From NCBI RefSeq assembly GCF_003704095.1, contig NW_020844518.1:1-64000 (forward strand): a stretch of DNA of 64,000 bases. Direction: 5' to 3'. The notes under the pieces are model-generated. The model worked only from the letters and a program-made list of their open reading frames with translations. It made no database searches and was not told where the DNA came from. The number at the start of each line of letters is the position of its first letter. Position 1 is the first letter of the stretch. A program made the translations under genes and the position numbers. The DNA is from Pocillopora damicornis (taxonomy: Eukaryota). Below, piece after piece: positions 44,201-46,111 of the stretch.

Positions 44201-46111
44201 GTGGTCATTTAGTTTGTGTCACAGCTCAGTTGCCCTGAAAGGCTCCATCCATATTCTATTTTAGAACAAGAACTATTAAGAACAAGACTTATGGATCACC
44301 TACCGATTTCATGGGCGACAATTCCAGTGTACCAACATCCACGAGCAAGGTTAATGTCTTGTTTGCGTCCCGTCCTCCCAACATATGATGAACACCTGGA
44401 AAAAATTTGGAATCAATGGTTCAAATCGTTAGCGCAGCCATATAATTTTCATGAAGTAGCTCTCAATAATCGACCACCATAATGAACTTCAACAACGTGT
44501 CAGAAAATCTCAACACTTCCACGGAATATCACACACCATATCTCGTTAGACTAAACAGGGAACAAGGACGTTTTGCGTCATTTTGTGTCCTCGCAAATGA
44601 CTTTTAAAATAGATTCAAAAACCCAGAAACGTGTTTGCATTTGAAAGGAGAGAATAAGTCACAAAGATGTGAAGGTTGTTAAGGATTGCTTTTTGTATTG
44701 CTTTCTGTTTCGAGATGGAGTTTTCAAATTGGAATTTTCAATTCATTCTTCACCATCGCTTTGCTTTGATTAAAGATTTATATATATATATATATATATA
44801 TATAACTGCAGACAATACTGTTTCGGCCTTCTGGGCCTCATCAGTGCAGTGCTGATGCTAGGATGGAGGTAAGGCTATATAGCCACCCCAAGTGATCTCA
44901 CATATGTGGTATCATCTAAGCCATGCCAGAGTGCTCAAACTAGAAAAACTAGTGAGCATGCATATATATATATATATACACACCCTTTGCCTAGTTTGAA
45001 GTTCGCATAGCTAGACTCCGTTGTTCTCGGCTTGAACTGGATACAAGTGTTCTTTGTCCATTGTTCCATTCCTGCCTTAATCGCCGCCATAGCGCGGGAG
45101 TCACTGGCTGTAATTATGGGTCAGAAGAAAATGTGTATTTTATGTTAAGAAAGGATATTTCTGAATTGTTGCGATTGATCATTGCTCTGGTTTTTTCAGA
45201 ACAGTTATATTGCTTTTACTGCGCTAATCTCTTACCATTTTGTTTGTTTCCTGCTACGGAATGGGGTCGCAATTTATTGAGGAATGATCTCGTTTTTGAA
45301 TAATTGAACTGTCTTTTATCTGGCCCTATTGATAGAACGTTCTGTTCTACTTACTACGTTCAACTTTTCGTTCTACATTTACTTACCACGTGTTTGTTTT
45401 ACCCCACCAATTTACACTCAAACTTATGTCTATCACAATAGATATAACACGTGTGCGACGGACACACCACTATTTGCCACTTTAAAATCGTAAAGGAAGA
45501 ATATGATTTCACACTTCACACTATTTCTCGTTTATTTTTAGAACACACTAATGACGAACTTACAGAGACTAGAGTCAATGACATAGTGCATCACACCACC
45601 AGGCCACTGTCGATTTATAGTGGAGCCTCTTCCAAACGGATTGTCCACATCCAACCCAAGTTCAATCGCCATGCGTTGATCTGGATCTAAGATCATGTCT
45701 CCTTCGTAGACATCTGGATCATCGATGCCGATATTTTCTACAATGGGAAAAAATTGAGGGGACATTGAAATTGAACAATGATGGACCTTCAGAATTTCAG
45801 ATTAACCCGATTGTGAAAATAGTCGCAACACTTCTCGGTCCATCATCGCTATCGTCATGTTGCTGACGGATCTCCGTTTTCGTTTCTCTCAGCACACCGT
45901 AAAGCTTTTACAATTATACTTATTTAAATATATGGTAGAAGCTTTGGATACGTTTTCCGAATAAAGTCATGAATTAAAAACGTCCACAAAACCTTTATAT
46001 TTTTCATACAAAAACTAACTTCCATGCTTGAAAAAACAAAAACTTACCGTCAGCGTTTTCTGATGCAACAAGGACCACTCCAAAAATCAAAATGGTACCA
46101 AGCCACTTCAT
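41227..46111 (-). CDS. Astacin-like metalloprotease gene E with ShKT domain (290 aa)
   Basis: Exons (minus): 46048-46111 ([21 protein letters not shown]), 45564-45737 (YEGDM...[15 protein letters not shown]), 44984-45107, 44304-44395 ([30 protein letters not shown]), 43546-43629 ([16 protein letters not shown]), 42309-42451 (YDYGSVMHY), 41678-41756, 41227-41339 ([36 protein letters not shown]). Total 873 nt in frame. Confidence 0.93.
44779..44978. mobile_element. (TA)n-flanked short insertion carrying a hammerhead motif (Penelope-like / retrozyme fragment)
   Basis: About 160 bp of unique sequence between (TA)n tracts at 44779-44804 and 44962-44978, directly after the exon 3 donor of gene E. 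Confidence 0.65.
44805..44850 (-). ncRNA. Minimal type I hammerhead ribozyme
   Basis: Minus strand ACUGCA-CUGAUGA-GGCC-CAGAA-GGCC-GAAA-CA-GUAU-UGUC^UGCAGU: perfect 6-bp stem I, intact CUGAUGA/GAAA core, 4-bp stem II, short near-palindromic stem III, GUC cleavage triplet. Confidence 0.85.

Follow-up and report, generated by a model that had tools for sequence, protein, structure and literature searches.

Intron 3 of an intact astacin gene carries a hammerhead motif on its sense strand, which raises the question of whether the pre-mRNA of this gene cuts itself before it is spliced. The gene, gene E, is one of seven tandem astacin paralogues on the minus strand of the window (the whole 64,000-nucleotide stretch of Pocillopora damicornis DNA analysed here). 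All of its introns are GT-AG, and the zinc motif and the Met-turn are present in its 290 codons; in a Pfam scan of its exons 6 of 7 match, Astacin in five and ShK in the last. The first-pass annotation placed the motif about 135 nt from the 5' splice site, in a (TA)n-flanked insertion and on the sense strand of a gene that it described as intact. The full frame of the gene, the strand and the two TA runs bear this out, and the distance from the donor (44983) to the beginning of the motif is 133 nt; the cut would lie 415 nt before the acceptor. The features are collected in Table 1. The array itself spans 35-60794 (minus strand), and its seven paralogues have a common exon layout, with a ShK-like last exon detected in five; the intron of another paralogue contains a 480-nt degenerate GGAAT-type pentamer repeat (22659-23138).

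Table 1. Features of gene E intron 3 and of the insertion that it carries (positions in the window; a slash marks the exon-intron boundary).
Feature	Position	Strand	Basis or remark
Gene E, astacin metalloprotease of 290 aa, 8 exons, intact, ShK-like domain at the C terminus	41227..46111	-	
Gene E intron 3, 588 nt, donor GG/GTGTGT adjoining TA run	44396..44983	-	
TA run, 5' side of retrozyme copy, from 5 nt inside the intron	44962..44978	.	sequence
Retrozyme copy truncated at its 5' end (154 nt 5' of the cut, 8 nt 3' of it)	44803..44964	-	TA microhomology obscures both ends
Predicted blocking hairpin, six bases that can pair with the catalytic core	44852..44857	-	include 5' strand of lost distal helix I
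Canonical type I hammerhead motif	44805..44850	-	sequence, descriptor match, sub-threshold Rfam HH9 alignment
Helix I, 5' strand	44850-44845	-	
Core CUGAUGA	44844-44838	-	
Helix II, 4 bp with 5-nt loop	44837-44825	-	
Core GAAA	44824-44821	-	
Helix III and dimer palindrome, 2 bp with 4-nt loop	44813..44820	-	C-to-U at 44815
Core UC	44812-44811	-	predicted cut 3' of C at 44811
Helix I, 3' strand	44810-44805	-	
U1.7 and A1.8, sole retained part of loop 1 3' strand	44803..44804	-	distal strand replaced by TA repeat
(TA)13 run, 3' side of retrozyme copy	44779..44804	.	

The motif contains every core nucleotide and all three stems, as first annotated, and the cut predicted here, between 44811 and 44810, coincides with the one proposed then. 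The core conforms to the CUGANGA, GAAA and UH of canonical metazoan type I hammerheads. PMC4209133 gives this class 6 bp in helix I, 4 bp in helix II and 1-2 bp in helix III, the last closed by a small palindromic loop; the motif has helices of 6, 4 and 2 bp, and the loop palindrome is imperfect in the window's copy. The same source defines the minimal hammerheads of Penelope-like elements (PLEs) as having lost helix III, with helix I shortened, helix II lengthened and one additional base following A9. Here, 8 nt lie between A15.1 and U16.1 (the PLE motifs found in the genome have 2 nt there), helix I has 6 bp rather than 4-5, helix II is not enlarged, no unpaired base follows A9, and the flanks are TA runs and host intron rather than an RT-GIY-YIG ORF. 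A minimal PLE hammerhead, the class to which the first-pass annotation had assigned the motif, is rejected on helix III, A9, helix I, helix II and location. The motif is, as predicted from its sequence, a canonical metazoan type I hammerhead. Nor does the suggestion that it would cleave efficiently only as a dimer follow, as the cloned monomer of a canonical coral retrozyme cut itself well, at ~0.8/min, according to PMC7229834.

A descriptor search of the 64-kb window returns one hammerhead, this motif. In 200 dinucleotide shuffles of the window there are 0 strict and 0.045 relaxed matches per window, and a chance motif is rejected. A search against Rfam, which had been proposed as a check, gives 0 matches at the gathering score in the window; the best local alignment, to Hammerhead_HH9, is sub-threshold, with a score of 25.1 bits where 52 are required (E 5e-4). 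Matches to microRNA hairpins score far under the cut-off and were rejected as artefacts of the TA runs.

The motif belongs to a repeat family. The 156 nt around it have 42 matches in the genome at 88-99% identity (40 of 77 candidates scored), and the exact helix II/core pattern has 40 matches, with 0 for the reversed control. Similarity and pattern searches together yield at least 48 loci, a lower bound; 46 have a recognisable motif, 2 do not, and 37 have an intact terminal core. The unit is 243 nt long, a length taken from one 1.5-unit copy, and has 44% GC. It is non-coding, multi-copy, within 170-400 nt, below 50% GC and equipped with one type I hammerhead, as is a non-LTR retrozyme unit. 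The window's copy comprises ~162 of the 243 nt (~67%) and one ribozyme. The motif is thus almost certainly the 3' end of a truncated non-LTR retrozyme copy, in agreement with the origin first suggested, a retrozyme- or Penelope-associated insertion in a TA run.

The window's copy is young, because it has the common family alleles at all but one position. The exception, the C-to-U change at 44815 in loop 3, is found in 0 of 24 comparable terminal copies; one internal copy has the same change. Active loci are defined in 10.64898/2026.07.22.740005 by two consecutive units with complete ribozymes; the window's locus has a single partial unit and is a dead-end copy of the family. Four head-to-tail junctions occur in the assembly, including one clean 1.5-unit copy with a damaged core. 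No long tandem array was found in the assembly, and none of the four junction matches is an internal junction with an intact core.

Summed contig depth over 44805-44960 is 130-490x that of the flanks in 4 of 4 DNA runs, a ratio that is not a copy number. This depth is far above what 48 assembled loci would give, and the assembly may have collapsed or missed source arrays. Relatives of the 243-nt unit that are diverged or shorter occur at 1480-1680 of locus L032, downstream of the copy at locus L009 and at loose ends of contigs; some directly adjoin young copies, and these relatives suggest repeated use of the same TA runs by older subfamilies.

The 3' ends of the family are nearly constant. 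In 40 of 46 copies the match to the unit ends 6-14 nt 3' of the cut, in most of them at 8 or 9 nt; among the remaining six, four are substituted in the first 6 nt, one meets an N gap and one runs on. At this end 43 of 46 copies enter a TA run of at least 8 nt, and 33 of the 46 end with the identical six letters after helix I. The 5' ends lie 33 to 486 nt before the cut (46 copies; two pieces side by side account for the value of 486 nt), and they cluster at 145-160 nt (14 of 46, the class of the window's copy) and at 230-255 nt, about one full turn of the unit (11 of 46). Three copies are cleanly longer than one unit (245, 252 and 364 nt) and lend at most indirect support to an expressed linear or circular RNA of unit length. 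A TA run is found upstream of 32 of 46 copies, as compared with 119 of 21,241 control positions (0.6%). Target-site duplications are unreadable inside TA runs.

Because the copies all include bases past the cut, where a linear monomer cut twice would end, the template was probably a ligated circle or an uncut multimeric RNA. The fixed 3' end, the ragged 5' ends and the TA targets match Penelope-type priming, presumably by an enzyme of that type. (TA)n is described as a PLE target in PMC8557442; AT-rich nicking and internal initiation of reverse transcription by Penelope-type enzymes, with uncut RNA as the main substrate in vitro, are reported in PMC11167929. Penelope and Poseidon insertions resemble those of the retrozyme in their AT-rich target, fixed internal start past the cut and variable 5' ends, but start 85-92 nt past the cut and inside an ORF, whereas the retrozyme starts at 8-9 nt and inside loop 1 (PMC11167929). 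Penelope-like GIY-YIG coding fragments are abundant in the genome (all of the 150 scored among 648 candidates match). In the mechanism that we propose, source units would be transcribed and then self-cut and ligated, or kept as uncut multimers; a Penelope-type reverse transcriptase/endonuclease would nick a (TA)n run; and the cDNA would begin 8-9 nt 3' of the cut site and read through the cut junction. The cDNA of the window's copy would have ended prematurely, after a further 154 nt, where the unit resembles a TA run.

The insertion start lies inside loop 1, and therefore each terminal copy would have a complete core and would have lost distal helix I. We folded the RNAs with helices I-III enforced, including a tandem junction and a circle built in silico. 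At the tandem junction helix I extends past a 3-by-2 internal loop with a probability of 0.12-0.80, depending on context, and in the circle with one of 0.28-0.50; in the window's copy and other terminal copies the probability of distal helix I is 0.0. The window's copy is thus predicted to lack the distal helix I that closes loop 1 in canonical hammerheads, and it retains U1.7 together with the terminal A of loop 2. The description of the motif as intact holds for the core; it does not hold for the 3' strand of the predicted distal helix I, which is replaced by the TA repeat, or for the loop 3 palindrome. The palindrome is perfect in 44 of 46 terminal copies, and the change at 44815 weakens the predicted helix III self-duplex from -10.0 to -5.4 kcal/mol at 37 C. 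In addition, the blocking hairpin is predicted with a probability of 0.77-0.98 when 120 nt of upstream context are included at 27 C, and of 0.01-0.07 with 20-40 nt.

The cost of the active fold is 4.9-6.0 kcal/mol in the window's copy, 7.3-9.9 at the tandem junction and 5.5-7.1 in the circle. Nearest-neighbour folding was rejected as a measure of activity, as it disfavours the active fold in every context, even in units that must be active. The model, which is uncalibrated, assigns the window's copy a lower cost than the tandem junction, contrary to our reading; these energies cannot rank activity, and our argument therefore rests on the structural loss. Loss or change of peripheral loops slows hammerheads 100-fold or more as reported in PMC6155905, and a lone U1.7 contact is enough for fast cleavage at 10 mM Mg as reported in PMC11875169. 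Within the pre-mRNA of gene E, the ribozyme would combine a helix III of 2 bp with a weakened palindrome; U1.7 could supply no more than one loop-loop contact, and an upstream hairpin would compete. The window's copy would thus cut slowly, and splicing of the 588-nt intron would usually finish before cleavage. Because the insertion removed the predicted outer-helix strand, we conclude that the motif, a clipped retrozyme 3' end in an astacin intron, is probably a slow or silent passenger.

Alternatively, cleavage in cis through contact of U1.7 with loop 2 could sever part of the gene E pre-mRNA before splicing and lower its output without being selected. The full core, the 6-bp helix I, the retained U1.7 and the sense strand are consistent with such cleavage, and the six paralogues could buffer the loss. 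How much would be cut depends on the rate. In an illustrative calculation with an assumed polymerase speed of 2 kb/min, and hence 12 s for the 415 nt to the acceptor, 15% of the RNA would be cut by the time the acceptor is transcribed, and 55% within 1 min, at 0.8/min, the rate of the coral retrozyme monomer in PMC7229834, but only 1-5% in 1-5 min at 0.01/min. According to Fong 2009, as cited in PMC10919898, fast intronic ribozymes impair splicing and slow ones are without effect. We consider such an effect of cis cleavage on gene E unlikely, as the copy has no distal helix I and a helix III of only 2 bp, a blocking hairpin is predicted, and sense copies are common.

The frequency of sense copies comes from up to 10 kb around each of the 47 other loci, in which genes were predicted with a small exon finder for which the astacin exons of the window served as the training set. 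Run on these same data, the finder recovers 6 of 8 gene E exons exactly and overlaps the other two. With a cut-off chosen after the scores had been seen, 19 of 47 loci were called inside a gene and 28 were left uncalled. Eleven of the 19 copies are sense and 8 antisense (p 0.65), as are 8 and 5, respectively, of those with intact cores; a test on the 19 called loci rejects 25% as the true proportion of sense copies (p 0.006). Pfam matches, among 112 predicted exons and 8 other frames scanned, back the called strand at 15 of 19 loci, but they flank the copy on either side at just 2 of the 19. The 11:8 orientation, from a small sample, argues against strong selection against sense copies and leaves mild effects aside. 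In Xenopus, retrozymes are reported to be under-represented in introns, and 8 of 9 tested dimer elements did not cut (10.64898/2026.07.22.740005). At a further locus (L045; G000:C2136, 4924-5086), a sense copy with an intact core stops ~46 nt short of an exon predicted for a CUB / F5-8 domain gene and is a second candidate for effects on splicing.

The first-pass annotation had further suggested that cleavage could compete with splicing and dampen gene E expression, possibly depending on transcript concentration or on trans partners from other element copies. This regulatory role is not supported so far, given the at least 48 near-identical insertions, the single site at which the copy departs from the family majority, the loss of the predicted distal helix and the 11 sense copies among 19. 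The insertion in gene E is likely neutral.

It is also conceivable that the position of the insertion, rather than catalysis, alters splice-site use, as the TA run and the element begin 5 nt after a non-consensus donor. The donor of gene E (44979-44985) reads GG/GTGTGT, as compared with GG/GTAA in the four paralogues with a readable donor, and the insertion is absent beside the same donor in those four. However, the donor score of 5.4 is mid-range among 35 window donors, a set that includes this donor itself and a few mis-picked sites, and the gene and its frame are intact. A position effect is accordingly improbable. DNA contigs of four runs from four studies all break at both TA runs, and no joint of an empty site is found among them. 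One flank contig (X10) extends 45 letters past 44991, where a pure TA run would allow 42, and its length is a weak hint of a filled allele. The exon 3 end motif has 0 matches in metagenome contigs. Two RNA runs share 0.26 and 0.23 of the words of 43500-45800, and the exons and the element alone would account for ~0.21 by a hand count; no conclusion is drawn from these values. Runs labelled coral or marine metagenome contain the stretch, as expected of a coral-type animal.

A third alternative invokes activation in trans, in which abundant retrozyme RNA from source arrays would pair through the helix III palindrome with intronic copies and dampen their hosts as this RNA rises. The palindrome is perfect in most terminal copies, and its heteroduplex with the window's copy is predicted at -7.7 kcal/mol. 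Retrozyme RNA is abundant in coral tissue, and dimeric activation occurs in cis for axolotl repeats, as described in PMC7229834. However, the axolotl dimers are tandem in one RNA, the palindrome of the window's copy is damaged, an 8-bp duplex would have to form in trans within minutes, and there is no deficit of sense copies. We regard such activation as highly improbable. We are equally doubtful of a broader form, in which clipped ribozymes, planted in sense orientation in many introns (gene E and ~8 other predicted genes with intact cores), would be re-armed in trans via the palindrome. If this were true, a mobile RNA circle would, through its concentration, adjust splicing in a dispersed set of genes.

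The partner that would copy the retrozyme was sought among PLEs. The unit sequence is absent from 29 of the 30 best loci of one PLE protein query, and the remaining locus holds separate retrozyme copies. Long ORFs within 1.5 kb of 30 retrozyme loci comprise PLE-like and host fragments, none of them continuous with the unit; 1 of 5 long-ORF candidates near retrozyme loci has a GIY-YIG match. That the element is the terminal repeat of an autonomous PLE with a minimal hammerhead, not a separate retrozyme, is extremely improbable, for although PLE insertions are often 5'-truncated to one repeat and some frog retrozymes match PLE repeats (as reported in 10.64898/2026.07.22.740005), the unit runs into another unit and not into an ORF, and 7 of the 30 PLE loci (the best 30, of one PLE lineage) carry a different, truly minimal motif, with the extra base, 2 nt at the position of helix III and no similarity to the unit.

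The slow or silent passenger that we favour thus joins a known kind of element, with a canonical but clipped hammerhead at the end of a retrozyme copy. In Acropora millepora, Cervera and de la Pena 2020 (PMC7229834) describe non-LTR retrozymes, 225 and 245 bp long, whose ribozymes are of canonical type I and whose RNA is expressed in both linear and circular form. The P. damicornis family resembles these in its 243-nt unit of 44% GC with one canonical type I hammerhead, in having no ORF or LTR, in its dispersed copies and head-to-tail junctions and in the PLEs alongside; the comparison covers these described features. It differs in that the window's copy is a lone two-thirds piece without distal helix I, and in that no long array is assembled. 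With the minimal hammerheads of PLE pseudo-LTRs, as described in PMC4209133, the motif shares the type I topology, the palindromic helix III region, the link to retroelements and the TA-rich targets; unlike them, it has no adjoining RT-EN ORF. The domesticated amniote motifs HH9, the best Rfam match, and HH10 (PMC6155905) and the CPEB3 ribozyme (PMC10919898), also domesticated, are likewise intronic, sense and of self-cleaving type. As reported there, these are single and conserved across species, and CPEB3 has been assayed, whereas the window's motif is a predicted ribozyme in a young, truncated repeat copy.

As a single motif the hammerhead of gene E is ordinary, as genomes of this coral type hold thousands (>6000 such ribozymes in A. 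millepora, according to PMC7229834). The ends of the family are more informative. They place the start of copying 8-9 nt past the cut and show read-through of the cut junction, and they bear on the proposed, unproven copying of circular retrozyme RNA by Penelope-type enzymes. The same start point deprives all dispersed copies of the predicted outer helix and would thereby account for the tolerance of sense intronic copies. In the literature searched, such an end pattern of retrozymes was not found described; the supplement of PMC7229834 may show it. Locus L082 (G000:C796:96469-99918) has two inverted copies of another hammerhead family, unrelated to the first, in which helix II has 4 bp; between them lie two pieces of the retrozyme and a GIY-YIG fragment of a PLE that carries a minimal hammerhead.
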